A stretch of 64,000 nt of DNA from an uncultured Planctomycetota bacterium (GTDB taxonomy: Bacteria; Planctomycetota; PLA2; JAEUHO01), in NCBI GenBank assembly GCA_963752285.1, contig CAVVXN010000002.1, positions 455,116 to 519,115 on the forward strand, in the 5' to 3' direction. Positions 6,569-21,411 of the stretch are shown here, piece after piece; the stretch's first letter is position 1; every line of letters starts with the position of its first letter. Position numbers and translations under genes: made by a program. The notes under the pieces are model-generated. The model was not told where the DNA came from. It saw only the letters and a program-made list of their open reading frames with translations, and ran no database searches.

Positions 6569-7923
6569 GTCGCGCTCCCAAGCTCCACGCGCACGCGATG
6601 GTGCGACTGGCGCTCCAGGTACTTCACGAGCTTCATTACGAAGTGGATCAGCATGCCGATCGCGATGATCACGCAGGAGTAGAGGGGAACCCGATCGGAG
6701 GGGTTCGACACCACGGCGAAGTTCGAGTAGAGCCGCGAGCCGGGCGGGGCGTTCTCGGGCCCCCAGCCCGACTGGTAGAGCGTGTAGCCTTCGCTCCGCA
6801 GCGGCTCGTTCATCGTGATGTGGACCTCGCGCGGCGGGGAGCCGGCCTCGGTCTTCGTCACGAACGAGGAGAACCGCCGGGGGATCATCGTGCCCGGGTG
6901 GTACTCGTGGACGAAGCGGTCGAGGTGGACCTGGAAGGGGAGGGTCCACCGACGCGGCCTCAGCTCGACCGTCCACTCCGCGTCGCCGAGCCGAACGCCG
7001 TAGGGCGCGGCCCTTGCGCTCACGAGCCCGCGGTGGGACGCACCGGTCGTACGCTCGACCAGGGTCACGCGCGCCCCGGGCGCGTTGTACAGGTTCTGGT
7101 CCTCCTCCGCCTTCGTGACCGGGGGACGCGTCTCGAGGGTCCAGCCGTCCACGGCGGAGGGGGCGGACGCGCCGACCCGCTTGACCACCGCGTTCGTCGC
7201 GTAGCCCGAGACCAGCACGTCGAAGGGGAGGTCGGGGTGCGCGAAACGCGCCGTGCCGCCCTCGTTCGTCCACGAGAAGTCCTCGGCCGGGACGACGTAC
7301 TCGCGCGCGGTGTGGTCCGGTCGGATCTCGGTGGTCGCGAGCTCCCAGCTCCGGAAGCTCACGTACTCGTCGGAGGCGTCGCCCTCGTAGAGAACCATCT
7401 GCCCGCTGGTCGAGAACCGGCTCTCGACCCAGGAGCCGACGAGCAGGATCACGATCCCGAGGTGGACGATGAACACGCCGAGCGTCGAGGTGCCCCGCCG
7501 CATGCGGAGCAGGCCGCCGACGATCAGGTTCACGAAGAGGAGCGGGAGGAGGAGCATGGCGCCTGGCAGCGGCAGCGGGATGTCGGCCCCCTGCGCGTAC
7601 CGCACGAACGGGTAGACCGAGGTCGCCAGGAGCACGCCCGCCACGAGGGCGGTCCACGGGGAGAGCGTCCGGCGGGCCCAGTGGAGCAGGACGGTCCACA
7701 CGGCCAACCCGGCCAGCACGACGCCCACCACCAGCGGGAGGAAGCCGGCGCCCCGGTGGATCACGAAGACCGAGCCGAAGTAGTGCGCCTGGACGTCGTA
7801 GATCGTGTGCGTGCCCTGGGCGATGGTGCCGAAGAGCGTCAGCAGGAGCATCAGGACGAAGAGGGCCGCGGCGAGGCGGAACGAGCCGAGGACCGCCACG
7901 AGCCGATCGAGAGGTCGTTGCAT
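6565..7923 (-). CDS. ccsB: System II cytochrome c biogenesis protein CcsB/ResB
   Basis: In-frame ATG at 7923 of track ORF 6565..9060. It has N-terminal TM helices, a large periplasmic loop and a C-terminal TM helix (CVIIAIGMLIHFVMKLV). Its stop overlaps the ccsA start at 6565-6568. Confidence 0.8.
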   Translation of the reverse strand: MQRPLDRLVAVLGSFRLAAALFVLMLLLTLFGTIAQGTHTIYDVQAHYFGSVFVIHRGAGFLPLVVGVVLAGLAVWTVLLHWARRTLSPWTALVAGVLLATSVYPFVRYAQGADIPLPLPGAMLLLPLLFVNLIVGGLLRMRRGTSTLGVFIVHLGIVILLVGSWVESRFSTSGQMVLYEGDASDEYVSFRSWELATTEIRPDHTAREYVVPAEDFSWTNEGGTARFAHPDLPFDVLVSGYATNAVVKRVGASAPSAVDGWTLETRPPVTKAEEDQNLYNAPGARVTLVERTTGASHRGLVSARAAPYGVRLGDAEWTVELRPRRWTLPFQVHLDRFVHEYHPGTMIPRRFSSFVTKTEAGSPPREVHITMNEPLRSEGYTLYQSGWGPENAPPGSRLYSNFAVVSNPSDRVPLYSCVIIAIGMLIHFVMKLVKYLERQSHHRVRVELGSAT

Positions 7924-7949
7924 GGGATTCGGATCTCCGTGGGGTCCGT

Positions 7950-9164
7950 TCACCAGGACAGGGAGCGGCAGAAGGTCTCGAAGTTCGGCTTCTGGCCCTT
8001 CACGACGTCCGCCGGGCCCGTCAGCTTGACGAAGATCGCGCTGTCGGGGCGGAGCAGCACGAACCCGAGCATCTCGGCGGGGTCGATCTTCTCGCCGCCC
8101 TGTCCCATCCCCGGCGTGTAGCTCCCGTCGATCGTGACGAGCACGCCCTCCATCCCGTTCGCGGTGAGGCGCGGCAGCGCCTGGATCTCTGCGCTCGTGA
8201 GGGGGGGCTGTCCCATCTGCCCGCGCCAGCGGTTGAGGTTCATGTCGAGCCCGCCGCCGTCTCCGTTGAGCACGGTGACGTAGCACTCCGTGTCCGAGGT
8301 GTCCTTCGGGACGTAGGTGACCTCGCGCATCGGCTTCGCGGGCTGCGGGAGCCAGGACGGCGGAGCGTCCCAGTGGAGCCCGCTGTCGCCCTCGCCGGCG
8401 GGCGGCATCTCCCCGGTCCCTCCGGGGAGGGCCGGATGACCCGGCGGCAGGTCGCTCGGGGCGCTGGACGCGCTCGCCATCGGTGCCCACGTTATCGAAC
8501 GGGCGAGGGCGTCGAAGTGCGCTCGCTCCTGCGCGATCACGTCCGCGGGCCCGACCATCTTCAGGAAGAGCGCGGCCATCGGCAGCTCGAGGATCAGGCC
8601 CACCATCTTCGCGTGCTCGAGCGGCGCGGAGCCACCCATGCCGGCGTAGGCCCCGTCGAGAACCACCTCCTTCGCCGGCCGGCCGAGGATCTCGCCATCG
8701 GGCAGGTTCTGGACGGCCGCGTCCTCCTCCGGGGGGAGCCCCATCTGCTTTCGCCAGCGGTTCACGTTCTCGACGAGCCCGCCGGCGGCGCCGGGAAGGA
8801 CCACGAGCGAGCACTCGGCGTCGGGCGATCCCGGGACCTTCCAGCTGCCCTTGCGCATCTCCGCCGGCGGCTCCTCCGTCCACCCCTCGGGCGTCGTCCA
8901 GGTCCACTCCCGACCGCCCGGGTCGCCGGCGCTCGCGTGCGGGCCCGCGGTGGCCCGGCCGAAGCGCTGGTCGCTCGACAGGCTGCTGGTGGGGGAGGAC
9001 GAGGCGCTCGACCGCTCCCGGACGTCGTCGATCGTGTACGTCTTCTCCTTCTTGCCGCACGCGCCGAGGAGGGCCGAGAGCCCGAGGAGCACGAGCCCCG
9101 ACAGCGCCAGCCGGGGCCGCGGGGTCGGGAGGGGGCGGCGTCGGGTCCGCGAAGCGTGCTTCAT
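7950..9164 (-). CDS. Lipoprotein made of two homologous ~135-aa domains, unknown function, co-oriented 26 bp upstream of ccsB
   Basis: In-frame ATG at 9164 of ORF 7950..9644, with lipobox LLGAC. Internal duplication is clear: ECSLVVLPGAAGGLVENVNRWRKQMGLPP matches ECYVTVLNGDGGGLDMNLNRWRGQMGQPP. FLKMVGPADVIAQERAHFDALARSITW matches FVKLTGPADVVKGQKPNFETFCRSLSW. Confidence 0.7.
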   Translation of the reverse strand: MKHASRTRRRPLPTPRPRLALSGLVLLGLSALLGACGKKEKTYTIDDVRERSSASSSPTSSLSSDQRFGRATAGPHASAGDPGGREWTWTTPEGWTEEPPAEMRKGSWKVPGSPDAECSLVVLPGAAGGLVENVNRWRKQMGLPPEEDAAVQNLPDGEILGRPAKEVVLDGAYAGMGGSAPLEHAKMVGLILELPMAALFLKMVGPADVIAQERAHFDALARSITWAPMASASSAPSDLPPGHPALPGGTGEMPPAGEGDSGLHWDAPPSWLPQPAKPMREVTYVPKDTSDTECYVTVLNGDGGGLDMNLNRWRGQMGQPPLTSAEIQALPRLTANGMEGVLVTIDGSYTPGMGQGGEKIDPAEMLGFVLLRPDSAIFVKLTGPADVVKGQKPNFETFCRSLSW

Positions 9165-9851
9165 GGCGGTGGCGACTCCGTTCTCCGACCCGCCGGGCGC
9201 CCGCCTCCGCCCGCGGCGCGCGCCGGGTCGGACCGCGCGGCGCGCCAGCCGGGAAGGGGAGGAGCGAGGGGGACGGAAGGCCGAGGATCGATCCGGGTCC
9301 GATGGGGCGGACCGCGCGCCGCGAGCGGCGCCAGGGGCCCGGCCGCGCGCCAGGGGCCGGATCCGGTTCGTGATGGTCCTACGCCCGTCGGAGACGAATC
9401 GCCGTACGATACCTCCGCTTCGGCCCGGGCTCCCCTCGGGAGACGACCGCCCGCCCCGCCTGGGACTGGGCCTTTGAGCCCTCCTCGCGACGCCGCACCA
9501 TCCGCTGCGCGCGGCGCCCGCGATCCGTCCCGGAGGGGGCGACCCGGGTGCCGTCGGGACCCCTCTCTCCACGGCCCCTTCCGGGCCCCACGCCCCGCCA
9601 TTTCGGGGGGGTGTGGCCCTCGGGGTGATCGTCCGATGACGCATTCTGGGTACCTACCGGAGGATCCGGGGCCGCTCCGTGCGGCCCCCGGATTGGGTCG
9701 GCCCTTCCCAAACTGCTGGTGAACAAGGGCTTGGGTAATTCGTCCGCGTGGTGCCACCCGGGGTGCGTCGCTTGCTAGGCCCTGGGGCAGGACCGGCAAA
9801 GATGAGTTCGGGGTCCGGAGGTCCGGGCCCCGGTCAGGAGCGGTACCCGGA

Positions 9852-10283
9852 GTGCTCACCCAGGCGGTCTGCCACGCAGCGAGGGCCCTCTCGTACCTCG
9901 CGTCCCACGGACGCGAGGCGGTCCTCGTCCGTGACCTGGCCGACCGGACGGGCATCCCCGGGCCGTATCTCGCAAAGATCGTGAATCAGCTCTCCCGCAA
10001 GGGCCTGGTGCAGACGCAGCGGGGTGTCGGCGGCGGCGTCGCGCCGCTCCGCGACCCCGCCACGCTGACGCTCTACGACCTCTGCGTCGCGCTCGGCGAT
10101 CCGATCGTCGAGACGCGTTGTCTGCTCGCGAACGCCACGTGCTCCGACGAGAGGGCCTGCCCCGCGCACGGCTTCTTCGTGGGGCACCGCGAGAAGGAGC
10201 TCGAGTTCCTTCGCTCGACGACGCTCGCGCACCTGGCGGCCTTCGAGGCCGACCAGGAGAGGAGGGCGAAACAGACCGCTTGA
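9852..10283 (+). CDS. Rrf2-family (IscR/NsrR-like) transcriptional regulator with a probable Fe-S ligand motif
   Basis: Track ORF with a GTG start. The wHTH is LVRDLADRTGIPGPYLAKIVNQLSRKGLVQTQRGVGGG. A C-x6-C-x5-C-x2-H motif is present (CLLANATCSDERACPAH). Confidence 0.85.
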   Translation: MLTQAVCHAARALSYLASHGREAVLVRDLADRTGIPGPYLAKIVNQLSRKGLVQTQRGVGGGVAPLRDPATLTLYDLCVALGDPIVETRCLLANATCSDERACPAHGFFVGHREKELEFLRSTTLAHLAAFEADQERRAKQTA

Positions 10284-10353
10284 TGGCCGAGAGTCCCCCT
10301 GATGGCAACCCGCAGGACGTCCGGGCTTTGGCCCGGGTCTGGAGAAGCAAATC

Positions 10354-10992
10354 ATGAATCGTCGCTGGCTCGCACCCCTCGCGCTCGGGGCCGCCGTCGT
10401 CGCGGTCTTCGCGCTGGTCGAGAGCGGCCGCTCCGCGGCCGCGGACGAAGGCGCCACGCCCGAGTTCGTCGGACAGACCGCCTGCAAGCAGTGCCACTTC
10501 AAGGAGCACAAGAGCTGGAAGAAGACGGTCCACGCGAAGGCGCTGGACCTCCTGAAGCCCGGCGAGGCGGCCGATGCCAAGAAGAAGGCCAACCTCGACC
10601 CGCAGAAGGACTACAGCAAGGATGCGACCTGCCTCCCGTGCCACACGACCGGCTACGGTCAGCCCGGCGGGTACCCGGAGGTCAAGGACGCCTGGAGCGA
10701 GGACGAGCAGAAGTGCGCGGACGTCAACGAAGGCGTCGGCTGCGAGGCCTGCCACGGCGCGGGCAGCCAGTACATCCCGTTCAAGAAAGACCACGACGGG
10801 GAGTACAAGCGGTCCGAGATCGCGAAGCTCGGCCTCAAGACGCCGGTCACCGCCGCGAACTGCACCGGCTGCCACAAGGCCGAGGGCAACCCGACGGTCG
10901 GGCCCGACTACAAGTTCGACTTCGAGACCATGAAGACGAAGCCGGAAGCCATTCACGAGCACCAGAAGCTCAAGAAGGACCACGAGGGATAG
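10354..10992 (+). CDS. Periplasmic tetrahaem c-type cytochrome (c554-like multihaem family)
   Basis: Track ORF with a signal peptide and 4 CXXCH motifs (CKQCH, CLPCH, CEACH, CTGCH). An RBS-like GGAGAAG lies upstream. Confidence 0.9.
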   Translation: MNRRWLAPLALGAAVVAVFALVESGRSAAADEGATPEFVGQTACKQCHFKEHKSWKKTVHAKALDLLKPGEAADAKKKANLDPQKDYSKDATCLPCHTTGYGQPGGYPEVKDAWSEDEQKCADVNEGVGCEACHGAGSQYIPFKKDHDGEYKRSEIAKLGLKTPVTAANCTGCHKAEGNPTVGPDYKFDFETMKTKPEAIHEHQKLKKDHEG

Positions 10993-10998
10993 CAGAAA

Positions 10999-11024
10999 GG
11001 CCGCGCGCTTCGGGGCGCGCGGCC
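10999..11024 (+). terminator. Perfect 10-bp GC hairpin just after the tetrahaem gene stop (attenuator or stabiliser candidate, no U-tract)
   Basis: GGCCGCGCGC-ttcggg-GCGCGCGGCC begins 7 nt after the TAG at 10990-10992. Confidence 0.35.
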
Positions 11025-11112
11025 CGCTCGACGAACCACGACTGACACCCGCCCGTCGGCCCCGGGCCGCGGGCGGGTCGGCCCCGAGGGTAGGGCAGGG
11101 GGGGACGCCGCC

Positions 11113-12672
11113 GTGTTTCGATCCGTCTTGGTGTCGGGCTGCCTCGTGGCGGCCTGGATCCTGGCTGGGTCCCTGGCCTGGGCCGAGCCGCCTTCGGCGG
11201 GCGCGGCGCCCGCCGCGCCCGTAGCGCCTCCGAGCGCGAGCGGGCAAAACGACGCTCCGCCCCCCGGCGCGGACGCGGCGACCGCCGCCGCCGCCGCCGG
11301 GGTCTCCGACTCTGCCGCGCCGCCTCCGCCTCCGAACCCCGCGGCGAACGCCGAGGCGAGCTACGGGGGGATCACGCCCGGCATGGTGGACCGCGCCGTG
11401 CACGCCGACGCCTTCCGAAGCGAGGCGCCGCTCTGGCAGGGCCAGGCGCGCCTGCGGTACCGGGGTCGCTTCACCTCGGAGGACGACGCCTCCGACCACG
11501 ACCTGTACGCGTACCTCAAGCTGAAGTACCGCGACGAGATGCTCCCGGGCTGGTCGGCCTCCTTCCACGGCCGGGCGACGCTCGACATCGGAAGCTTCGG
11601 GAACCGCGACGGGTTCCATCCCTTCGACTCGATCACCGACACGTACGAGCACCGGCTGAACGGGCGGATCTACCACGCGTACGTGAACTACCGAAGCCCC
11701 CGGAGCCTGGTCGAGGAAGTGCGGCTCGGGCGGCAGTACTCCGACGTCGGCGAGTTCATCCGCTACGACGGCGTCCGCGCGACGAGCCGCCCCCTCGGGT
11801 GCGGTTGGTGGCAGGTGTCGGCGTTCGGCGGGGTCCCCTCGTACCTGTTCGACGACGGGCGCGAGGGCGACTGGACCGTGGGCGGGTCCGTGAAGGGCCG
11901 CCCGTGGCGCGCCACGGGCGTCACGCTGAGCTACACGCATGCTCACGACCAGAACGCCGTCTACGGCCACGTGGACGACAACTTCGTGGACCTGACGGTG
12001 GACCAGCGGATCGGCATGAACACGCTGGTCCGGGGCACGTACCAGCAACTGAACGCCGATCCCCGGGCGCTCCGCCTGATCTTCGACACCTTCTTCCCCG
12101 CGCGGGACGTCACGGTGCGCGGTTCGTTCTACTCGGTGCTCTCCTCCCAGACCGAAGCCGTGTACGACTTCGACTACTACTACGCGGAGGCGCTCTCGCT
12201 CGAGCCGTACTGGCTCGGGACGCTGGCCGTCTCGAAGGGCCTCGGCGACCTCTTCACGGTCGAGGCGGGCGTCAACGAGCGCATGCTCTACGACCAGGCG
12301 GACGAGGGCACCTTCAACCGCGAGTTCACGGAGGTCTACGGGACCGTGGCCTCCTCCGACTGGCTGCTCCGGGACCTCCGCCTCGCGCTGACCGGCGAAT
12401 GGTGGAAGGCGAGCGGCGACCGGATATGGACCGCCACGTTCGACCTCGACTGGCGCCCCTGTCCGGCGTGGCGCCTGAGGCTCGGCACCGACTACGCCGC
12501 GTACCGGTACGACCTCTTCACGAACTCCGAGCGGGTCCACGACCTCGGAGGCTTCGTGAGGGTCACGTGGCGGCCTCGCTCCTGCTGGGAGGTCGATGTC
12601 CGGCTGCGCGTGGACGACGACGACGACGGGACCTGGACGCAGCTCGACGCCGGGCTGACGTTCGATTTCTGA
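11113..12672 (+). CDS. Outer-membrane beta-barrel protein (porin component candidate of a porin-cytochrome complex)
   Basis: Track ORF with a signal peptide (SLAWA/EP) and an Ala/Pro-rich linker of about 90 aa. Amphipathic strands rich in Y/W/R/D follow. The C-terminus DAGLTFDF ends in an aromatic residue, as is typical of BAM substrates. Confidence 0.7.
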   Translation: MFRSVLVSGCLVAAWILAGSLAWAEPPSAGAAPAAPVAPPSASGQNDAPPPGADAATAAAAAGVSDSAAPPPPPNPAANAEASYGGITPGMVDRAVHADAFRSEAPLWQGQARLRYRGRFTSEDDASDHDLYAYLKLKYRDEMLPGWSASFHGRATLDIGSFGNRDGFHPFDSITDTYEHRLNGRIYHAYVNYRSPRSLVEEVRLGRQYSDVGEFIRYDGVRATSRPLGCGWWQVSAFGGVPSYLFDDGREGDWTVGGSVKGRPWRATGVTLSYTHAHDQNAVYGHVDDNFVDLTVDQRIGMNTLVRGTYQQLNADPRALRLIFDTFFPARDVTVRGSFYSVLSSQTEAVYDFDYYYAEALSLEPYWLGTLAVSKGLGDLFTVEAGVNERMLYDQADEGTFNREFTEVYGTVASSDWLLRDLRLALTGEWWKASGDRIWTATFDLDWRPCPAWRLRLGTDYAAYRYDLFTNSERVHDLGGFVRVTWRPRSCWEVDVRLRVDDDDDGTWTQLDAGLTFDF

Positions 12673-12686
12673 GGGGGGGTGGCTCC

Positions 12687-14066
12687 ATGGCCTTCTTGCG
12701 CAATGACGGCCTGTGGCGCTGGGCCATCGTCGCCGTCGCCTTCGGCGTGGTGGGGTGCGCCGTCGCGCTGAACGCCCCGCGCCCCACGATGGTTCCGGCG
12801 AACGTGTACCGCGCGCCTGCGCCCCCGCTCCCCGCCGGTCGGGCCGTTTTGGGCCCCCGCCTTCCGCACGAGAAGCACGCGGACCTCGGCCTGGGCTGTA
12901 CCGACTGCCACGGGGTGGACGAGAAGACCGGCGAGCCCACGTACCCCAAGCCCGAGGTCTGCCTCGACTGCCACCAGGACATTCAGGACGAGGCGAAGAC
13001 GCCCCCCGAGAAGCGCGTCGAGAACCTGTTCTTCGACCCGCAGGGCCTGCCGCGGTGGAAGCGCTCGATCGTGGGCTACCCGGCGGACGTCCGTTTCTCG
13101 CACAAGACCCACGCCACGGCCAACCTCGAGTGCGCCGAGTGCCACGGCAAGATGAAGGGCACGGAGCGGGTCCAGCACAAGGTCCTCCAGAAGAGCCAGT
13201 GCCTGGCCTGCCACCAGGAGCGGGACGTCTCGCTCCAGTGCGCCATCTGCCACCGCGCGACCCGCGCCGACGTGCCCCCGCCGAGCCACCAGCCCCAGAC
13301 CGACTGGGAGGTGCTGCACGGGAAGACGGTTCTCGCGGCCGAGGCCCAGGGGACGAGTTCCTCCTGCCAGTACTGCCACGCCACGTCCTACTGCAACGAG
13401 TGCCACCAGGCCCGCAAGCCGTCGTCCCACGGCTTCGACTGGGAGCGACGTCACGGCCAGCTCGTCTGGCAGGCGGGGAGCCCCGACGCCGCGAGCTGCA
13501 CCTTCTGTCATCGCGACGCCGCGTTCTGTGACGGCTGCCACCAGAACCGGAAGCCCAGCTCCCACGACCACCTCTGGGAGAAGAGACACGGCGTGCTGGC
13601 CCGCGCCGGCGACATGAGCGGCATGGCGCGGTGCACGTTCTGCCACGACAAGCCTTCCTTCTGCGAGGACTGCCACAAGGAGAACCCGCCGCGCGACCAC
13701 ACCGACATCTTCCGGACGCGGACGCACGGCATGATGGCCTCCCTCGACCGCACGCGATGCATGGTCTGCCACCAGACCGACTTCTGCGTGCGCTGCCACG
13801 AGGACACCGCACCGCGCTCCCACCGCGGGCTCTGGGCCCACCTGCGGGACACGCACTGCATGCAGTGCCACTTCCCGATCCAGCAGGAGCCCGAGTGCGC
13901 GGTGTGCCACAAGCAGAACCCCACCCACGACACCGCGCCGGACCAGCCGCCGAGCCACACGCCCGGCCTCAACTGCCGTGCGTGTCACACGCCCGTGGGC
14001 GTGGGGGGGGCGCCGCCGTTGCGGCACGTTGACAACGGGACCCCCTGCCAGTTCTGCCACCACTAA
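12687..14066 (+). CDS. 17-haem c-type cytochrome, probable lipoprotein
   Basis: In-frame ATG at 12687 (RBS GAGGGGGGG) within ORF 11799..14066. The N-terminal helix ends in VVGC, a possible lipobox. I count 17 CXXCH motifs. Several form pairs of CxxCH-x4-5-CxxCH followed by a (K/P/A)P-x-(S/D)H tail (KPSSH, PPRDH, APRSH). Confidence 0.9.
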   Translation: MAFLRNDGLWRWAIVAVAFGVVGCAVALNAPRPTMVPANVYRAPAPPLPAGRAVLGPRLPHEKHADLGLGCTDCHGVDEKTGEPTYPKPEVCLDCHQDIQDEAKTPPEKRVENLFFDPQGLPRWKRSIVGYPADVRFSHKTHATANLECAECHGKMKGTERVQHKVLQKSQCLACHQERDVSLQCAICHRATRADVPPPSHQPQTDWEVLHGKTVLAAEAQGTSSSCQYCHATSYCNECHQARKPSSHGFDWERRHGQLVWQAGSPDAASCTFCHRDAAFCDGCHQNRKPSSHDHLWEKRHGVLARAGDMSGMARCTFCHDKPSFCEDCHKENPPRDHTDIFRTRTHGMMASLDRTRCMVCHQTDFCVRCHEDTAPRSHRGLWAHLRDTHCMQCHFPIQQEPECAVCHKQNPTHDTAPDQPPSHTPGLNCRACHTPVGVGGAPPLRHVDNGTPCQFCHH

Positions 14067-14067
14067 C

Positions 14068-14171
14068 GCCGGCGCGCTGAGGGCCCCGTTCGCGGCCCTT
14101 CCTCCTCCTTGCGTGCATTCGCACGCGGCGTCGTCGTCATGACCACTCCTTGGGGCCCTCAGCGCGCCGGC
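14068..14171. repeat. 104-bp element bounded by a perfect 20-bp inverted repeat with an inner hairpin
   Basis: GCCGGCGCGCTGAGGGCCCC (14068-14087) is the exact reverse complement of 14152-14171. The 64-nt interior contains GCGTGC-attc-GCACGC (14111-14126). The element starts 2 nt after the cytochrome stop codon. Confidence 0.8.
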
Positions 14172-14190
14172 TGCGTGCGGGCGCGGCGCG

Positions 14191-14570
14191 GGGGGCTCGC
14201 GGGCCCGCCTTCGGCGGGGCCGCATCGCGGGCTTGGTGCGGGGGGCTCGCGGGCCCGCCTTCGGCGGGGCCGCATCGCGGGCTTGGTGCGGGGGGCTTGC
14301 GGGCCCGCCTTTGGCGGGGCCGCATCGCGGGCTGTGGTGCGGGGGGCTCGCGGGCCCGCCTTTGGCGGGGCCGCATCGCGGGTGTGGTGCGGGGGGCTCG
14401 CGGGCCCGCCTTCGGCGGGGCCGCATCGCGGGGTGGGGTGGGGGGCTTGCGGGCCCGCCTTGGGCGGGGCCGCATCGCGGGGGTGGTGCGGGGGGATTGC
14501 GGGCCCGCCTTTGGCGGGGCCGCATCGCGGGGGTGGGGTGGGGGGGGCTTGCGGGACCGTTTTGGGCGCT
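14191..14570. repeat. Tandem array of 7 copies plus 1 degenerate copy of a ~50-bp GC-rich hairpin repeat
   Basis: The unit is GGGGGCTCGCGGGCCCGCCTTCGGCGGGGCCGCATCGCGGGCTTGGTGCG. Units start at 14191, 14241, 14291, 14342, 14392, 14441 and 14491, with a degenerate copy at about 14543. Units 1 and 2 are identical. Each contains an 11-bp stem, GCGGGCCCGCC/GGCGGGGCCGC, with one mismatch. Confidence 0.9.
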
Positions 14571-14638
14571 CCGGGAAAGGTTTGGGTGGGGCGTCGCGTT
14601 CGGGATCATGTCGCGAACGTCGTTCGGGAGTCGGTATC

Positions 14639-16711
14639 GTGCGGCTCGCGTGGCTCGCGTGGCTCGGTGGGGTCGTCTTGGCGCTCGGGCTCTCGCTCGG
14701 GGTGGGGGTTCGGGCGGCTCGGGCGGACGACGAGGTCACCGACCAGACGCTCGAGGACCACGAGTGCCTGTCGTGCCACGGGTTTGCGAAGAACGAGGAG
14801 AAGGCGCCCTTCGTGGACGGGCGACTGTTCCTCGTCTCGGTGCACAAGGACGTCGCTTGCACCGACTGCCATGGCGACTACGAGGGCAACCATCCCCAGA
14901 AGATGGCCCCGCCCGAGTCGTGCGCCTCGTGTCACTCCGACGAGTACGACCAGGTCAAGAAGAGCGTCCACGGCGTACGGTTCCCCGGGCCCGAGGCGCC
15001 CGAGACCTCGCCCGCCTGCGGGGCCTGCCACGGGATCCACGACGTCTTCAAGCCCACGGACCGCCGGTCGCACCTGTTCCCGCTCGAGGTCCCGTTCACC
15101 TGCGGGCGCTGCCACGCGAACGAGAAGGACGGCACGCCGACGCCCGCCTCCGAGCGGCCCACGGTCGATCAGCTCCTCTCGACGCTCTACGCCGACGACA
15201 CGCACGGCGCGGCGCTCCTCAAGGCCGGGCTGGTCACGGCGCCGACGTGTGTCACCTGCCACGGCAAGCACGACATCCGGCACCCGGAGGACCCGGCCGC
15301 GTCGGTCAACCGGATGAACGTGTCGAAGACGTGCGGCCAGTGCCACGTCGGGATCTACGAGCACTACGTCGAGAGCATCCACGGCACCACGCCCCGGGGC
15401 CATCCCGAGAACAACGCGAACAAGCGGGAGCCCGCCACCTGCACGGACTGCCACACGCCGCACGGGATCGAGCGTGTGGGGCTCCACTTCAAGCTGAAGA
15501 TCATCCAGACATGCTCGCGCTGCCACGGCGAGCGCGGCCGGACGTACAAGGGCACGTACCACGGTCACATCTCGGAGATCGGGCTGGGCGGCGTCGCGGC
15601 GTGCAGCGACTGCCACACCGCGCACGACATCCTGCCGTCCAGCGACCCGCGTTCCTCCGTGAACCCCGCCCACCGGACCGCGACGTGCGCGAAGTGCCAC
15701 GAGGGCGCGACGCCCCGGTTCGCGAGCTACCTGGTGCACGCGAACCCGGACGACCCGAAGCGCTTCCCCATCCTCTATTACGCGCGCACCATCATGCGCG
15801 ACCTGATCCTGGGCACCTGGGCCCTGTGGGGTCTCCACACGCTCCTCTGGCTGTTCCGCGCGTGGAAGGACCGGAAGAGGATTCGGGCGCACATCGAACC
15901 GGTGAGCGGGCGGTGGTACCGGCGCTGGCCCTGGAGCTACCGCGCGATCCACCTCACGCTGATCTTCTCGTTCCTGCTCCTCGCCATGACCGGCATCCCG
16001 CTCCGCTTCAGCGAGGCGCCCTGGGCGCGGACCGTGTTCGACTTCCTGGGAGGGGCTGCGAACTGCCGGCTTCTCCACCGCATTGGCGCGGCCTTGACCT
16101 TCGCGTACGCCCTGGCCTTCGTCGTGATGATCGCCGTGCGCCTGGCCCGGGGCGAGCGTGGCATCTTCCGCGGGCCCTCGTCCCTCCTCCCGCGCGTGAA
16201 GGACCTCCACGACATCCGGGCGAACCTCAAGTGGTTCGTGAAGGGCGGGCACCCTCCGGCCTTCGACCGCTGGACCTACTACGAGAAGTTCGACTTCCTC
16301 GCCGAGGTCTGGGGGGTGATGTTCATCGGGATCACGGGCCTGGTCATGTGGTTCCCGATCTTCTTCACCGACTTCCTTCCCGGCTGGGGCATCAACCTCG
16401 CCAACATCTTCCACTCGTACGAGGCGCTGCTCGCGACGACGTTCATCTTCACGGTGCACTTCTTCAACGCGAACCTGCGGCCAGGGAAGTTCCCCGTGGA
16501 CCCGATGTTCCTGCACGGCCGCATCTCCGAGGAAGAGCTGCGCCACGAGCGGCCGGCCGAGTACGAGCGCATGCGCGCCGAGGGCCGCCTCGAGAGCGAG
16601 GCCCTGCCGCCGCCCAACGAGCGCGTGACCGAGCGCGCCCACATCATGGGCATCCTGCTCATGTCGATCGGTCTCGTGCTCGTCCTCCTCATGGCCAGCA
16701 CGCTTCTCTGA
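14639..16711 (+). CDS. Fusion of an 11-haem c-type cytochrome domain and a membrane b-type cytochrome domain (CbcL-like quinol oxidoreductase candidate)
   Basis: In-frame GTG at 14639 (GGGAG about 9 nt upstream) within ORF 14150..16711. There are 11 CXXCH motifs in the first ~380 aa. About 5 TM helices with conserved His follow (WGLHTLLW, AIHLTLIF, LLHRIGAAL, FHSYEALL..TVHFF). Confidence 0.85.
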   Translation: MRLAWLAWLGGVVLALGLSLGVGVRAARADDEVTDQTLEDHECLSCHGFAKNEEKAPFVDGRLFLVSVHKDVACTDCHGDYEGNHPQKMAPPESCASCHSDEYDQVKKSVHGVRFPGPEAPETSPACGACHGIHDVFKPTDRRSHLFPLEVPFTCGRCHANEKDGTPTPASERPTVDQLLSTLYADDTHGAALLKAGLVTAPTCVTCHGKHDIRHPEDPAASVNRMNVSKTCGQCHVGIYEHYVESIHGTTPRGHPENNANKREPATCTDCHTPHGIERVGLHFKLKIIQTCSRCHGERGRTYKGTYHGHISEIGLGGVAACSDCHTAHDILPSSDPRSSVNPAHRTATCAKCHEGATPRFASYLVHANPDDPKRFPILYYARTIMRDLILGTWALWGLHTLLWLFRAWKDRKRIRAHIEPVSGRWYRRWPWSYRAIHLTLIFSFLLLAMTGIPLRFSEAPWARTVFDFLGGAANCRLLHRIGAALTFAYALAFVVMIAVRLARGERGIFRGPSSLLPRVKDLHDIRANLKWFVKGGHPPAFDRWTYYEKFDFLAEVWGVMFIGITGLVMWFPIFFTDFLPGWGINLANIFHSYEALLATTFIFTVHFFNANLRPGKFPVDPMFLHGRISEEELRHERPAEYERMRAEGRLESEALPPPNERVTERAHIMGILLMSIGLVLVLLMASTLL

Positions 16712-16878: not shown

Positions 16879-17904
16879 ATGAAGACCGTGCCCCCGCCCG
16901 CCGGCCCGGCCGACGGTGATGGTCCGCGCCGCTGGGCGGTCGTCGTGGGCACGATCGGGGGCCTCTTCCTCGGCGTCGTGTTCTTCGTCGCCGTCTGGGG
17001 GGTCCCGCCGATCCGCCTCGGCAAGGTGGGCGACCCGGAGGCGTTCGCGCAGGTCCTCCAGCTCGAGCGCCTCGTGGTGGTGCTGAGCCCCTTCGAGGCG
17101 GCGGTGTTCGCGATCGGAGTGGAGGCCGCCGTGGCCTTCTTCCTGCTGCTCGGGATCCGCCGGCTCTGGGTCCTGGTGCCCGTGACGTTGGTGGTGGTCT
17201 TCTTCATGTACCTGAACGGCCGAGCGTATCTCGCGTGGATCCAGGGCGAGAAGCTCCCCGAGATGTCGTGCGGCTGTTTCGGGAACCTCGTAGACCGCTC
17301 GCCCGCGGAGGCGTTCTGGCAGGACGCGGCCCTCCTGCTCCCCGCGCTGCTCATGGCGTACGTGGGCCGTCCCAGAGGGGAGGGCGCCTCCGCGCCTCCC
17401 GTTCGGACGGCGCTGGCGGGCCTCCTCACCATGGGCACCGTGTTCTTCGCGGCGGCCGCGCCCGAGATGAGGCTCGACGACCTTTCGACGCGGCTCCGGC
17501 CCGGAACGGACCTTCGCACCGTCTGCGCCGGCACGGGTCCGGAGCACCTGTGCCTGGCGGGCGAAGCCCTCGCGCCCGGGCTTACGGAGGGCGAACACGT
17601 CGTCGTGCTCGCCGACCTCACCGACCCGGACTTCCAGGCGGAGGTGGCGCACCGGAGCCAGGAGCTCCTCGACTTCGCCGCGCGCGAGGACGCGCCCGAC
17701 ATCCTCGTTCTGTTCAGCGGGCCCAAGGAGCAGGCGACCGCGTTCCAGTTCCAGGCCCTCGCGCCCCCGTTCCAGTACCAGGACGTGCCGGCGGCGCTGC
17801 TGAGACCCCTGCACCGTCGTCTGCCGCGTACGTTCGTGGTTCGAGACGGCGTCGTGCGCGCGACCTACTCTGGACTGCCCCCGATGGCCGATCTGGACCT
17901 GTGA
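16879..17904 (+). CDS. MauE/DoxX-like membrane protein (CGCFG motif) with a C-terminal soluble domain
   Basis: Track ORF with 4-5 TM helices and the MauE-type motif EMSCGCFGNL. The C-terminal ~150 aa may have a thioredoxin-like fold but carry no CXXC. Confidence 0.75.
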   Translation: MKTVPPPAGPADGDGPRRWAVVVGTIGGLFLGVVFFVAVWGVPPIRLGKVGDPEAFAQVLQLERLVVVLSPFEAAVFAIGVEAAVAFFLLLGIRRLWVLVPVTLVVVFFMYLNGRAYLAWIQGEKLPEMSCGCFGNLVDRSPAEAFWQDAALLLPALLMAYVGRPRGEGASAPPVRTALAGLLTMGTVFFAAAAPEMRLDDLSTRLRPGTDLRTVCAGTGPEHLCLAGEALAPGLTEGEHVVVLADLTDPDFQAEVAHRSQELLDFAAREDAPDILVLFSGPKEQATAFQFQALAPPFQYQDVPAALLRPLHRRLPRTFVVRDGVVRATYSGLPPMADLDL

Positions 17905-17927: not shown

Positions 17928-18755
17928 ATGCGCCGCATCCACCCCCCGAGCCGCTGGGCGGCGATCCTCGTTCTCGCCACGCTGGCGGGGGTCCCCTCCG
18001 CGCGTGCCGGCGACGACACCGGGGACGCGCATCCGACCCTCCGCGACTTCCAGGCGACGGGGCAGTACGTCCTCTGGGCCAAGGACGAGGCGGTGGACCA
18101 GGCGACGATCTACTACTCGGAGCCCTCGGCGGCGTATTTGATCGTCACGGAGGCCTTCCCCGACGCGGTGCTGATCCTGCCGCGCACCCGTTGTGTCGAG
18201 TCGGTCAAGTCGGACGAGATGATCGAGCGGGACGACGGCGGCATCGACGTGAAGAAGGAGGCGATGCCCTGCGGTCTCGGCCGGTTCCGCCTGGAGGGAG
18301 CCGACGTGGTGTTCGACGTCGGCGACATCCCCGCCCGGCTGAAGCCGAAGCCGCCCCTGCTCGGCGGGCATCGGCGCGACGCGCTCCTCGAGCACTCACC
18401 GGAGTACGCGCGGGGCGCGAAGGCCTACAAGCCCGACATGGACGTCATCGAGCAGATGAAGAAGGCCAACAAGAAGGCCCGCATCCAGATCTTCTTCGGC
18501 TCGTGGTGTTCGTTCTGTGCCCGCTTCGTTCCCCACATCCTGCGCGTGGAGGAGGAGCTCCAGGGCACCGACCTTTCGTTCGAGTACTTCGGCCTGGAGC
18601 CGCCGCCGGCGGCGTGGGTCGGCGAGACGGCGACGAAGATGGGAATCAAGAGACTCCCCACGGGCATCATCTTCGTGGACGACAAGGAGATCGGCCGGAT
18701 CATCGGGACCGAGTGGATCCGCCCCGAGGTCGCGCTGGCGCGCTTCCTCCGCTGA
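17928..18755 (+). CDS. Secreted thioredoxin-family protein (WCSFC active site) with an unknown N-terminal domain
   Basis: In-frame ATG at 17928 of ORF 17235..18755. Signal peptide is AAILVLATLAGVPSARA. The C-terminus reads IQIFFGSWCSFCARFVPHI...LPTGIIFVDDKEIGRIIG. Confidence 0.8.
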   Translation: MRRIHPPSRWAAILVLATLAGVPSARAGDDTGDAHPTLRDFQATGQYVLWAKDEAVDQATIYYSEPSAAYLIVTEAFPDAVLILPRTRCVESVKSDEMIERDDGGIDVKKEAMPCGLGRFRLEGADVVFDVGDIPARLKPKPPLLGGHRRDALLEHSPEYARGAKAYKPDMDVIEQMKKANKKARIQIFFGSWCSFCARFVPHILRVEEELQGTDLSFEYFGLEPPPAAWVGETATKMGIKRLPTGIIFVDDKEIGRIIGTEWIRPEVALARFLR

Positions 18756-18882: not shown

Positions 18883-21411
18883 CTAGGGCAGCGCGAAGCT
18901 CGCGCCCGACAGCGCGCCGAGCGTGTGGGTGAACACGTCCGAGACGAAGCCCGGGTTGTGGAAGGACTTGCTGCGGTCCGCCTCGAGCATGGAGAAGTTC
19001 CAGCCCGCCTTCGCGAGCACCACCTCGGGGTTCCCGGCGAAGAGGCCGTTCAGGTAGAGCGAGCCCATCGGGAGATCGAGCGGGTCGAGGATCGTCGTGC
19101 CGCCGTGGAGCTGCACGTGGTAGATCCAGGAGCCGCCGATCTGGATGTTCATGCCCTGCCGCCCGTGCGACTCGGCGAACTCCAACCCCCCGACGACCGA
19201 CGTGGAGTCGATCGTGGCGGCGAGCGGGGTCGCCTCGTCGAGCGTCGAGCCGGTGAGGGCGATGCGGTATCCCGCACCGACCAGCGACTGGATCTCGTCC
19301 GCGAGCTTGGACTCGATGGTGAGCTTCAGGTCCTCGATGCTGGTCTCGAACTGCTTCTCGAGCGTGCCGCCGTCGAAGGCGCCGTGGCAGTTCGAGCAGA
19401 TCGAGACGTCGGCGGTGAAGCCGTGGTTGGCGCCCGCGCCGCTCAGGCTGTAGTCCGCCGGGGGCGGGCTCATCTGGACGTGGCAGGTGACGCAGGTGTC
19501 CTTCAGGAAGCCGTGGGGGCCGCGGCTCGGCGTCGAGACGAAGAACATGTTCTGGCCGAAGAGCACGTCCGTCTGCGGGCCCTGGTGGGGCGCCCGGTCG
19601 GGCGAGTCGAGGCCCGTCACGTCGTTCCTCAGACCGCGCCGGCCGTTGTGGCACTCCATGCACATCGCGCCCTTGCCGACGTTCGTCGCGCTGAACCCCG
19701 ACTCGAGGTTCATCGCGTTGTCCTCGACGCGCATGTGCGCGTCGTTCGCGTCGCCGGAGACCGTTCCGACGTTGTGCGGGTCGTGGCAGACCACGCACGT
19801 GATCGGGTGGACCGTATCGGCCGTCGGCGCGGCATCGACCACCCCGTCCGGCAGCCAGTCGAGGAAGCCCTGTGCGGAGTGGCACTTCGCGCAGCTCTTG
19901 TTGGTGCCCTCAGCGATGGCGACCTCGTAGTTGCCGTGCGCGCTGTTCTCCCACTGCTGGAAGCGGCCGTGCCGCGGCGGTTCGCCGTGGCAGGAGCCGC
20001 ACACGTCCGACGCCATGGAAACGCGGTACACGTCGTTGCCCATGTGGCTGCTGCCCTGGCCGTTCGGGCCGTGGCAGTTCTCACACTGGATGTTGCCCTT
20101 CTGGGCGACCGTGGGCCACGTCGAGAGCACCTTGGCCCAGTTCCCCATGTCCATCGTCATGTGGCCACCGGGGAACATGCCGGCGTAGAAGTCGGCGTAC
20201 TGCGGCGTGTCGTCCAGCCCGTCGTTCGTCGCGTCGAGGTCGAAGCCCACGGTGTGGCACGCGAAGCAGCTGCTGCTGTAGTGGTCGCTCGTGTTCAGGT
20301 TGTCCTTGAAGATCGAGGCGTGCCCGGTCTTGGCCCAGTCCGTGAATTTCTCGGGGAAGATGCCGGAGTGACAGGACATCGTGCAGGACATCGTCGGGTT
20401 GCCGGCGGCGTCCATGCCGTCGATCCCGCCGACCCACTTGCCGGCGTAGACGTCCAGGTTGACCGTCGTGCTCGTCGCGAGGTCCGTCACCGCGAGGGTG
20501 TACTTCCCCGTGACGTCGGGCACGAACCAGGGGTACCGGGTCGTGGCGTCGGAGAGCGTCGCCGTGGAGGTCCCCGGCGCCGCCTGGATCGTCCAGTCGT
20601 ACGACGCCTGGGTCTTCCCGCCGAGCAGGACCGGCACGCCGACCGGCACGTTCTGGAGGCCCGTCGTCCAGGCGACGAAGGGCAGCTTCGCGGCGACCGC
20701 GGCCGTCGCCTTGTACGTGCCGCTCGTCGTCGTCACGGTGCACTGGAGGTCCACCGCCGCGCCGAGGTCGGCGACCTCGGGGTTGAGCGGGACCACCCGC
20801 CAGCGCTCGAGCTGCTCGATGCTGCCCACGAGGGCGGTCTTGTAGGCCGCGATCGCGGCCAGCGTCACGTCCGTCGTCGCCGCGGTCGGCGCCGTGATCG
20901 TCGCCGTGGCGCCCGTGCCCGTCTGCGACCAGGAGTAGCCGCTGACCGTCGATCCGTCGTAGATCGTCGGCGTGGCCGTCAGCGCGAACGACGCCCCGGG
21001 AGCGGGGCCCGTCGGCGCGCCCGTGATCTTCACGGTCACGTGCGCCGTCGGCATGAGGTCGAGGTTGCACGTGGTCGTGCCGGCTGCGAGGACGCTCACG
21101 CTGTCGGCGCCCGCCGTGAACCCGGTCGGCGCGCAGGCGAGTCCGTAGCTGCCCACCGGCAGCGTCGCGGTGTAGTGACCGGTCGCGTCGGTCACGGGGT
21201 TCACACCCGCCACGGCGGGCGTGAGGGTAACGGGCGCCCCTGCGAGGGGAGCGCCGCTCATGGCGTTGGTCACCTGACCGGTCAGCGTGCCGGTGCTCGC
21301 GCCGGGGAGGCCGGGCGCGCCGTTGCTGCCGGAACCGCAGGCGGCCAACGACAGGCAGAGGAAGGTGGCGAGCAGCCACCCGCCTCGATGGAAGCGAGTC
21401 GCAGGCGTCAT
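18883..21411 (-). CDS. 842-aa multihaem lipoprotein cytochrome (8 CXXCH + 1 CX3CH) with N-terminal carboxypeptidase-regulatory/Ig-like domains
   Basis: In-frame ATG at 21411 (RBS AGGAG) of ORF 18883..21588, with lipobox SLAAC. GTLTGQVTNAMSGAPLAGAPVTLTP...TDATGHYTATLPVGSY matches a CarboxypepD_reg-like domain. Haem motifs are CTMSCH, CFACH, CENCH, CGSCH, CAKCH, CVVCH, CMECH, CVTCH and CSNCH. Confidence 0.85.
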   Translation of the reverse strand: MTPATRFHRGGWLLATFLCLSLAACGSGSNGAPGLPGASTGTLTGQVTNAMSGAPLAGAPVTLTPAVAGVNPVTDATGHYTATLPVGSYGLACAPTGFTAGADSVSVLAAGTTTCNLDLMPTAHVTVKITGAPTGPAPGASFALTATPTIYDGSTVSGYSWSQTGTGATATITAPTAATTDVTLAAIAAYKTALVGSIEQLERWRVVPLNPEVADLGAAVDLQCTVTTTSGTYKATAAVAAKLPFVAWTTGLQNVPVGVPVLLGGKTQASYDWTIQAAPGTSTATLSDATTRYPWFVPDVTGKYTLAVTDLATSTTVNLDVYAGKWVGGIDGMDAAGNPTMSCTMSCHSGIFPEKFTDWAKTGHASIFKDNLNTSDHYSSSCFACHTVGFDLDATNDGLDDTPQYADFYAGMFPGGHMTMDMGNWAKVLSTWPTVAQKGNIQCENCHGPNGQGSSHMGNDVYRVSMASDVCGSCHGEPPRHGRFQQWENSAHGNYEVAIAEGTNKSCAKCHSAQGFLDWLPDGVVDAAPTADTVHPITCVVCHDPHNVGTVSGDANDAHMRVEDNAMNLESGFSATNVGKGAMCMECHNGRRGLRNDVTGLDSPDRAPHQGPQTDVLFGQNMFFVSTPSRGPHGFLKDTCVTCHVQMSPPPADYSLSGAGANHGFTADVSICSNCHGAFDGGTLEKQFETSIEDLKLTIESKLADEIQSLVGAGYRIALTGSTLDEATPLAATIDSTSVVGGLEFAESHGRQGMNIQIGGSWIYHVQLHGGTTILDPLDLPMGSLYLNGLFAGNPEVVLAKAGWNFSMLEADRSKSFHNPGFVSDVFTHTLGALSGASFALP

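Follow-up and report, generated by a model that had tools for sequence, protein, structure and literature searches.

A candidate porin-cytochrome type electron conduit encoded by an uncultured Planctomycetota bacterium and its relatives

Introduction

The porin-cytochrome systems of metal-respiring bacteria share the principle of a multihaem wire within a large outer-membrane barrel, as in MtrCAB of Shewanella, MtoAB of Sideroxydans and PioAB of Rhodopseudomonas, the last two having a two-component format. Here we describe a five-gene locus at positions 9852-16711 of a stretch of DNA from an uncultured Planctomycetota bacterium (NCBI GenBank assembly GCA_963752285.1, contig CAVVXN010000002.1, positions 455,116 to 519,115 of the forward strand; the whole 64,000-nucleotide stretch is referred to as the window). 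In our assessment the locus probably encodes an electron conduit of the porin-cytochrome type across the cell envelope. An earlier note, made by reading the window alone, had proposed a functional analogy with such conduits and with their quinol oxidases, and had described the part list as non-canonical.

Two-gene porin-cytochrome (pcc) clusters, made up of a porin and a cytochrome of 338-344 amino acids (aa) with 12-14 haems, occur in Candidatus (Ca.) Kuenenia and Anaeromyxobacter, and have been proposed to span the outer membrane alone (PMC4245776). In the Kuenenia stuttgartiensis pair kuste4024/4025 and in the Anaeromyxobacter clusters the porin lies beside one large multihaem cytochrome, with no separate gene for an outer-membrane cytochrome, and the likeness to our locus is at the level of this format (PMC4245776). 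Ca. Kuenenia belongs to the same phylum as the host of the window, and a Brocadia orthologue of the Kuenenia pair is reported to be expressed during electrode-dependent anammox (10.1101/855817). The window cytochrome differs from its two-gene counterparts in having 459 aa and 17 haems and in being a lipoprotein, whereas the published ones are called periplasmic; its barrel has about 24 predicted strands, compared with 18-22 for the published Pcc porins; and the locus adds a c554-type cytochrome, an Rrf2 regulator and a CbcL-like fusion to the two-gene format. The OmbB-OmaB-OmcB and Ext systems of Geobacter sulfurreducens have the porin-first order, the lipoprotein multihaem cytochrome and the trans-outer-membrane conduit role that we propose for our locus (PMC4245776). 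They have three components, with a periplasmic 8-haem protein and a 12-haem lipoprotein in addition to the porin, while in our loci the invariable partner of the barrel is one cytochrome, and scores against the Geobacter NCBIfam models were far too low (25-36 bits against 325 for the GSU2203 family; 11.8 against 250 for ExtKL).

At the inner membrane, the CbcL/MtoC/MtrH family comprises proteins with 3-23 haems and about six membrane segments in 15 phyla, including Planctomycetes, and mtoC/mtrH have been found together with mtrAB/mtoAB in one locus (PMC6295460). In such Mto/Mtr loci, as in ours, the barrel gene is clustered with genes for an inner-membrane cytochrome of MtoC/MtrH type and for a small carrier of the periplasm (PMC6295460), but the wire in the window would be a 17-haem lipoprotein and not the soluble decahaem protein of Mtr. 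Uncultured Verrucomicrobiota and Acidobacteriota have repeatedly yielded divergent porin-multihaem clusters (PMC5615132; 10.64898/2026.05.27.727921), and 'novel' multihaem clusters and CbcL matches have been noted in lake Planctomycetota (10.1101/2022.03.26.485925). For one metagenome-assembled genome (MAG) of a Planctomycetota/KSB1 set, a FeGenie porin-cytochrome match followed by a multihaem-4Fe4S-NrfD cluster has been drawn, and an 'iron-dependent transcriptional regulator' is named with the neighbouring genes in the legend of that figure (PMC10732223). The description of the part list as non-canonical was thus overstated, since CbcL-type fusions, two-gene pcc clusters and single-locus Mto/Mtr systems had already been described. 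We regard the locus as a recognisable, so far undescribed variant of the porin-cytochrome systems and not as categorically new. Its noteworthy parts are a large barrel family that has no model and is particular to this system, a predicted wire, anchored by lipid, that joins an ActA-like head to dihaem repeats, a c554 carrier, a putative Fe-S-type Rrf2 regulator, a set of maturation genes, and a host group that is rarely considered electroactive.

Results and Discussion

A conserved pair of genes at the core of the locus

The five genes of the locus are as follows.

9852-10283, + strand: Rrf2-family transcriptional regulator, 143 aa (Pfam PF02082, E=1.2e-24)
10354-10992, + strand: tetrahaem cytochrome of the c554 family, 212 aa (4 CxxCH, PF13435)
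11113-12672, + strand: predicted outer-membrane beta-barrel, 519 aa (AlphaFold2 model, C-terminal beta-signal DAGLTFDF)
12687-14066, + strand: 17-haem lipoprotein cytochrome, 459 aa (17 CxxCH, lipobox VVGC)
14639-16711, + strand: 11-haem c / dihaem b inner-membrane fusion, 690 aa (11 CxxCH, PF01292)

A check of the open reading frames (ORFs) returned the same five co-oriented genes as the earlier note had listed, and our tally of CxxCH motifs agreed exactly with its haem counts of 4, 17 and 11. These motifs are kept at 96-100% in alignments of homologues of the multihaem proteins, so haem motifs arising by chance are excluded. The genes had also been called closely spaced, and this holds for the first four, which are separated by 70, 120 and 14 nt; the last lies beyond a repeat-bearing gap of 572 nt.

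The barrel gene is followed directly by a gene for a multihaem homologue in 22/22 loci. Twenty-one of these (15 from Planctomycetota, titled by phylum, class or order, 4 from Nitrospirota and 2 unclassified) came from a genome scan with one genome per species, and L025 was added to them; individual loci are cited by number below. The pairing spans deep divergence, at 26-57% identity, and the barrel and its multihaem partner are the core module of the locus. The partner itself varies. It has 15, 17 or 19 haems in the near relatives of the window, is a lipoprotein of about 340-350 aa with 12-13 haems in most Planctomycetota, and has 7 haems and no lipobox in Nitrospirota. The distant Planctomycetota loci have the two-gene pcc format, a barrel with a 12-13-haem protein of about 340 aa, as far as a comparison by description goes; a name look-up of the homologues of about 340 aa returned Planctomycetota MAGs only and neither Kuenenia nor Brocadia. 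One product from the search of representative sequences, P0143 (976 aa), joins a barrel and a 13-haem lipoprotein cytochrome by read-through. This is probably an assembly frameshift, because the lipoprotein signal peptide persists inside the product.

The barrel protein begins with a signal peptide (...AWA/EP, read from the sequence) and a Pro/Ala-rich linker of about 80 residues. An AlphaFold2 model made with seven homologues has a mean confidence (predicted local distance difference test, pLDDT) of 71 and contains 24 strands between residues 108 and 518, most of them with a pLDDT of 85-94; residues 1-104 are disordered and no plug domain is predicted. The terminal DAGLTFDF fits the usual BamA beta-signal, and 146/156 members of the family end in F, most of them with W at -3 and G at -6. 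A Foldseek search with the model retrieved 323 outer-membrane barrels at E<=1e-3. All were generic barrels of 18-24 strands (AlgE, FimD/PapC, OccK/OprD-type porins and chitoporin) with template-modelling (TM) scores of 0.35-0.44. The strand count, the family-wide terminal F and the signal peptide thus agree with the outer-membrane barrel of the earlier note, which had named a soluble or non-barrel prediction as evidence to the contrary; AlphaFold2 and Foldseek both returned a barrel.

In Pfam and NCBIfam the window protein matched nothing, and a tblastn search of plasmids was equally empty. Among 74 family members there were weak Pfam matches to Porin_4 (8), OMP_b-brl (7) and MtrB_PioB (6). 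The link to MtrB/PioB that the earlier note had put forward for profile searching was therefore confined to those six of 74 relatives, all sub-threshold (best 1.2e-3), with the window barrel itself unmatched. A word-indexed search yielded 7 homologues, and a profile search of 1.84 billion representatives yielded 801 (representative clusters at 50% identity), of which 407 were at E<=1e-30. The hosts are mostly uncultured Planctomycetota with some Nitrospirota. By these searches the barrel founds a large unannotated family that lacks a Pfam or NCBIfam model, and we know of no FeGenie-type model for it. We also observed that residues 25-105 (window 11185-11425) form a low-complexity extension, and that other family members also carry long N-terminal extensions rich in Pro, Ala or Gln, with PPQGQPP repeats in P0143. 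Its length varies, family members ranging from about 440 to 620 aa, and such extensions may serve as a periplasmic spacer or tether.

The true start of the 17-haem gene is at 12687 (MAFLRND...); an extension of the ORF to 11799 was rejected as non-coding read-through on the basis of homologue lengths and the signal peptide. The protein is laid out as a lipobox, a Pro-rich tether, an ActA-like pentahaem head (residues ~55-227) and five to six dihaem repeats. Among 43 homologues at least 90% keep the lipobox Cys, as do the Planctomycetota loci, in keeping with the earlier description of a probable lipoprotein with 17 haems. The head matches the ActA chains of four solved structures of Alternative Complex III (ACIII), namely 6lod_A (8e-18), 8k9e_A (1e-17), 6f0k_A and 6btm_A, the weakest at 6e-14, and a Foldseek search retrieved 6lod_A (1.7e-4) and also 8k9e_A. 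The five-CxxCH head is therefore similar to ActA in both sequence and fold. The setting is different from that of ACIII: the window locus has no ActB-F genes, twelve further haems are appended, and the lipobox is conserved, whereas ActA in the ACIII structures is held by a retained membrane helix. The repeats of the tail take the form CxxCH-x4-8-CxxCH-x4-5-P-x2-H...H-G. There are 21 non-motif His residues for the 17 haems, 15 of them conserved, which is consistent with mostly bis-His ligation. We found no catalytic domain in Pfam or NCBIfam, and the protein scored 41.4 bits, in a partial match, against a cut-off of 192.2 for the MtrA/DmsE model TIGR03508; MtrA itself (PDB 6r2q_A) was matched at E=3.4e-4. 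By the profiles for barrel (PF11854) and cytochrome (TIGR03508), neither protein is a member of the Mtr family.

The carrier, the quinone-linked fusion and the regulator

The tetrahaem protein matches Pfam PF13435 (Cytochrome_C554) with 75.4 bits (cut-off 20.8, E=7e-21) and Nitrosomonas europaea cytochrome c554 (PDB 1bvb) over nearly its whole length (residues 37-211, E=7.6e-24). It falls well below the equivalog model of nitrifier CycA, NF043010 (117.1 bits, cut-off 400). Judged by these scores, the protein truly belongs to the cytochrome c554 family but is not an orthologue of nitrifier CycA, with which it shares a tetrahaem fold family. In contrast to the setting of N. europaea c554, the window locus has no hydroxylamine oxidoreductase, and the c554 protein accompanies a porin-cytochrome module. 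A Sec-type signal peptide without a lipobox is found at the N-terminus; this feature, with the four CxxCH motifs and the family match, agrees with the periplasmic tetrahaem cytochrome of the earlier note, and we propose that the protein is a periplasmic shuttle. In the ten closest loci (L001-L010) the gene immediately upstream of the barrel is that of c554. A homologue is present elsewhere in the locus in L011, L013, L018 and L025, and it is missing from many other loci.

For the fusion protein, the true start is the GTG at 14639, which gives 690 aa, the length of the database gene call P0157. An ORF start at 14150 was discarded as non-coding read-through in view of homologue lengths, the signal peptide and a tandem repeat. 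The protein scores above the cut-off of PF01292 (Ni_hydr_CYTB; 37.3 bits, cut-off 30.1), with weak matches to TIGR01583 and to FdnI (1kqf_C, E=0.006). It begins with a signal or anchor segment and carries six hydrophobic segments after the haem domain, so that the description of an 11-haem-c/cytochrome-b fusion stands. All 11 CxxCH motifs are 96-100% conserved in 120 homologues, as are 11 distal His residues, and the membrane segments contain invariant His residues at positions 400, 438, 480, 592 and 607 in the same 120 proteins. Two b haems need four such residues, and H400 is the extra one. The 1551 homologues come from many phyla, and those listed bear only unspecific labels, for instance 'cytochrome c3 family' and 'cytochrome b subunit of formate dehydrogenase'. 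Among the 120, the 19-haem form is commonest (80/120) and the 11-haem form accounts for 17/120; the 11 haems of the window protein correspond to the conserved core of the 19-haem relatives, which come from many phyla. Like CbcL (GSU0274), MtoC and MtrH, the window fusion joins an N-terminal periplasmic multihaem c domain to a C-terminal HydC/FdnI-like cytochrome b, has about six membrane segments and conserves the His residues that would bind the b haems. The window protein has 11 haems as against 9 in CbcL, the fit to the family being judged from published features. We propose that it is a quinol:cytochrome oxidoreductase of CbcL/MtoC/MtrH architecture.

The regulator passes the Rrf2 superfamily model TIGR00738 (86.6 bits, cut-off 73.3). 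It fails the IscR equivalogs TIGR02010 (51.6 bits against 207.6) and NF008110 (37.8 against 275) and scores far under the cut-offs of the NsrR and RirA equivalogs. As the superfamily model alone was satisfied, the protein is, by profile, a generic Rrf2 protein. A putative Fe-S motif, C90-x6-C97-x5-C103-x2-H106, is kept in four orthologues, including those of L003, L004 and L005; its first Cys spacing is one residue longer than that of E. coli IscR. The 'IscR-like Cys3-His' regulator of the earlier note thus keeps its family and its conserved motif, but not a score that would place it with IscR.

Nearest relatives and neighbouring genes

The closest syntenic relatives are Planctomycetota MAGs with 57-65% identity. 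In the nearest of them the order of the whole island is an unknown lipoprotein, ResB and CcsA on the opposite strand, followed by Rrf2, c554, barrel, cytochrome, fusion, MauE and thioredoxin. Comparative genomics therefore supports the cluster at two levels, that of the invariant pair and that of an island kept in the nearest relatives. A gene for an 11-haem/cytochrome b protein lies nearby in L001-L008, L011 and L013. Only L001 and L004 have, at the position of the window's repeats, an insert in which the gene for a small cytochrome is joined by those for an NrfC-like 4Fe-4S protein and its NrfD-like partner, an arrangement that resembles the porin-cytochrome/multihaem-4Fe4S-NrfD cluster of the published MAG (PMC10732223). 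The small cytochrome of the L001 insert is unrelated to the ActA-like head and to any solved structure. In L025 (6508-15800, from a Planctomycetota MAG) downstream of the barrel and a 13-haem cytochrome come a multihaem protein of 961 aa, a homologue of c554, a Rieske protein and cytochrome b; by sequence, the same outer-membrane module is there coupled to a bc-type complex.

The genes on either side of the window locus that bear on its function are these.

4460-6568, - strand: CcsA/CcsB-like protein (divergent operon 4460-9164)
6565-7923, - strand: ResB-like protein (same divergent operon)
7950-9164, - strand: lipoprotein, 404 aa, internally duplicated (same divergent operon)
16879-17904, + strand: MauE-like membrane protein (PF07291, E=2.8e-10)
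17928-18755, + strand: thioredoxin-like protein (weak thioredoxin matches)
18883-21411, - strand: lipoprotein cytochrome, 8 haems, 842 aa (lipobox LAAC)
21867-24266, - strand: lipoprotein cytochrome, 10 haems, 799 aa, seemingly internally duplicated (lipobox VAGC)

Matches in the divergent operon were to PF01578 (1e-19), PF05140 (9e-21) and TIGR03144 (1e-31). Its three genes are syntenic in L001/L004, L003, L005 and L007, and the 404-aa lipoprotein, which matches nothing in Pfam or NCBIfam, always lies beside ResB/CcsA; it may be an unrecognised helper in cytochrome c maturation. Each of its two internal copies carries the repeat W..P..W...MR...EC..VL.G..GGL..N.NRWR.QMG.PP.... The MauE-like and thioredoxin-like proteins are probably thiol-redox helpers for cytochrome c maturation. 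Their genes are also downstream in L001/L004, where they are fused, and in L005 and L006; in L003 the MauE-like gene is present and the contig ends before a possible thioredoxin gene.

The two large lipoprotein cytochromes contain PKD and CarboxypepD_reg domains in one case and CHB_HEX_C and Fn3_assoc domains in the other, all typical of cell-surface proteins. They are possible extracellular partners of the conduit. Within 10 kb of the barrel gene in the other loci we found no homologue of either, except a weak one in L011.

A proposed path for electrons, and its rivals

From the gene content, haem motifs, folds, conserved synteny and barrel-cytochrome pairing reported above, we infer cellular locations, a physical complex, an electron path and a physiological role as follows. 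At the FdnI-like b-haem domain of the inner-membrane fusion, electrons would be exchanged with the quinone pool; the fusion would then relay them along its 11 bis-His c-haems into the periplasm, which the soluble c554-type protein would ferry them across. The 17-haem lipoprotein would be held at the outer membrane by its lipid anchor and Pro-rich linker. Electrons would enter it at the ActA-like pentahaem head, and its dihaem-repeat tail would thread the barrel of about 24 strands, insulated by it, to the cell surface. Metal oxides or humic material could accept electrons there, as could other surface cytochromes, for example the two large neighbouring lipoproteins. The putative Fe-S-type Rrf2 regulator probably controls expression, and the ResB/CcsA and MauE/thioredoxin genes probably serve to mature the 32 c-haem sites.

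Several observations suggest this assignment of roles. An invariant plug-less barrel with a long multihaem protein is, by analogy with MtrAB, MtoAB and PioAB, the signature of a porin-cytochrome conduit. MtrB has 26 strands, and four haems are too few to span a membrane. The 17-haem protein is taken as the wire and c554 as the shuttle because the barrel-cytochrome pair is invariant, because c554 is often absent and because of the small number of its haems. The earlier note had cast the 17-haem protein as the surface cytochrome; with the barrel and this protein as the conserved unit, we have revised that role to one of a wire threaded through the barrel. The protein is more likely to be such a barrel-inserted wire, an analogue of MtrA or OmaB, than a surface cytochrome only. 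The functional analogy of the earlier note, a porin-cytochrome conduit with a CbcL-type quinol oxidase, is upheld by domains, predicted locations, synteny and the invariant pair. Beside the same core we find three quinol-oxidising modules: a CbcL-like protein (in the window and L003-L008), to which an NrfC/NrfD-like pair is added in L001/L004, and a Rieske/cytochrome b module in L025. This recurrence suggests that the core links the quinone pool with the outer membrane.

Other findings weigh against the conduit. MtrB was absent among the top 50 Foldseek matches of the barrel, the window barrel gave no match to MtrB_PioB (PF11854) at E<=0.1, three profiles of increasing depth found no sequence relative of it in the PDB, and every named member of its family is a 'hypothetical protein' from a Planctomycetota MAG. 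In the model of the 17-haem protein the C-terminal half has a pLDDT of about 45, confidence being limited to the N-terminal half. Lipoproteins normally face the periplasm, whereas this one would have to reach the surface. Finally, the fusion gene, which lies 572 nt of repeats away, may be a separate transcription unit.

The same parts could also run inward, with Fe(II), Mn(II), reduced humics, minerals or partner cells outside the cell as the electron source and the quinone pool or a periplasmic acceptor as the sink, as in MtoAB-MtoC-MtoD or PioAB. The CbcL/MtoC/MtrH family is at work in Fe(III) reducers as well as in Fe(II) oxidisers, with no sequence feature that tells the two directions apart (PMC6295460), so that the sequence fits either. 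Porin and cytochrome clusters that lack an outer cytochrome are typical of the oxidising Mto and Pio systems (PMC4245776), and potential for Fe and Mn oxidation has been predicted in Planctomycetota MAGs (PMC10732223). The tetrahaem protein is homologous to c554 (1bvb), and in nitrifiers c554 is a carrier on the donor side. Yet in the window the locus has no linked gene for Cyc2, a terminal oxidase or a nitrate reductase, and the adjacent large cytochromes of surface type resemble terminal reductases, the 8-haem protein having a match to MtrC/MtrF domain II/IV (2e-11). The haems seem to be bis-His and so, in general, of low potential, which fits either direction and lends no specific support to a high-potential uptake route. 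We consider electron uptake unlikely; outward flow, that is respiration, is the more likely of the two directions and is our default.

Another reading, in which no cytochrome crosses the membrane, makes the barrel an ordinary diffusion or uptake channel and the 17-haem protein a periplasm-facing reductase, or electron store, for soluble substrates. The best structural matches of the barrel are indeed substrate or export channels (AlgE, OccK/OprD-type porins, chitoporin), several members of its family have weak Porin_4 matches, the default orientation of lipoproteins is towards the periplasm, and the ActA-like head is a periplasmic module in ACIII. However, as an open pore a plug-less barrel of about 24 strands would be unusually wide, the TM scores to the 18-strand channels are low (0.35-0.44), and the 17-haem protein has no catalytic domain. 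Strict 1:1 pairing at 26-57% identity fits porin-cytochrome complexes (PMC4245776) and would be unexpected of a generic porin. We therefore hold the ordinary channel to be improbable. That the genes are neighbours by accident or through an assembly artefact, without joint function, is scarcely credible: the contig is metagenome-assembled and the 572-nt repeat-filled gap could be a junction, but the gene order, including the maturation flanks, recurs at 45-66% protein identity in independent MAGs from different studies, so that it has been assembled independently several times, and the GC content is uniform over the region.

If the conduit reading is correct, these bacteria would possess a respiratory route to Fe/Mn oxides or humic matter, or a route of electron uptake, with a bearing on how carbon is turned over and methane suppressed in anoxic soils. 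Soils, peat and sediments harbour abundant non-anammox Planctomycetota, which are mostly regarded as aerobic or fermentative degraders of polysaccharides. A bolder proposal, which we offer tentatively and with more doubt than conviction, is that the barrel-cytochrome pair represents a third lineage of trans-outer-membrane conduit, independent of Mtr and of Geobacter Pcc. In non-anammox Planctomycetota this lineage would be both ancestral and widespread, and Nitrospirota would carry an offshoot of it. It would use a single lipid-anchored wire composed of an ActA-like head and tandem dihaem repeats and would plug interchangeably into CbcL-like, NrfCD-like or Rieske/cytochrome b modules. Abundant planctomycetes of soils and sediments would then be electroactive. 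The compact two-protein conduit, a barrel with a lipoprotein wire, would be attractive for structural study and for synthetic bioelectronics, and the barrel family could be used as a marker in surveys of electroactive potential.

Intergenic DNA and more distant neighbours

Two elements were found in the intergenic DNA of the locus.

14177-14559, no strand: tandem repeat, 50 bp x 7.6 copies, with a GC hairpin in each unit (Tandem Repeats Finder score 592, 92% matches)
9624-9643, no strand: element of ~18 bp, RTGATS-N3-CS-N-RTGAC, in the divergent intergenic region 5' of the Rrf2 gene

The repeat array sits inside the 572-nt gap between the 17-haem gene and the gene of the cytochrome b fusion, and its position is occupied in relatives by the extra NrfCD-like genes or by a long gap. 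The hairpin of the repeat unit is GGGCCCGCC-TTCG-GCGGGGCC, and the 7 hairpin cores are confined to the array within the window. The array folds with a minimum free energy of -110.6 kcal/mol (z=-2.7), and no Rfam family was matched in it or in the rest of the locus. G+C content is about 72% across the window and uniform, including this region. A scan of the locus for sigma-70 promoters and terminators was uninformative. In L003, L004 and L005 the orthologous intergenic DNA is otherwise unconserved but shares the element of about 18 bp, a candidate operator or promoter.

Beyond the two large cytochromes, 24607-27186 (- strand) encodes a protein of 859 aa in which WD40/PD40 and TPR repeats occur together with one CxxCH motif; L005 has a homologue at the corresponding relative position. 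Further away, at 28334-34497 (+ strand), a DUF4062 + SIR2_2 protein is followed or overlapped by a very large ORF, and these may form an anti-phage defence system.

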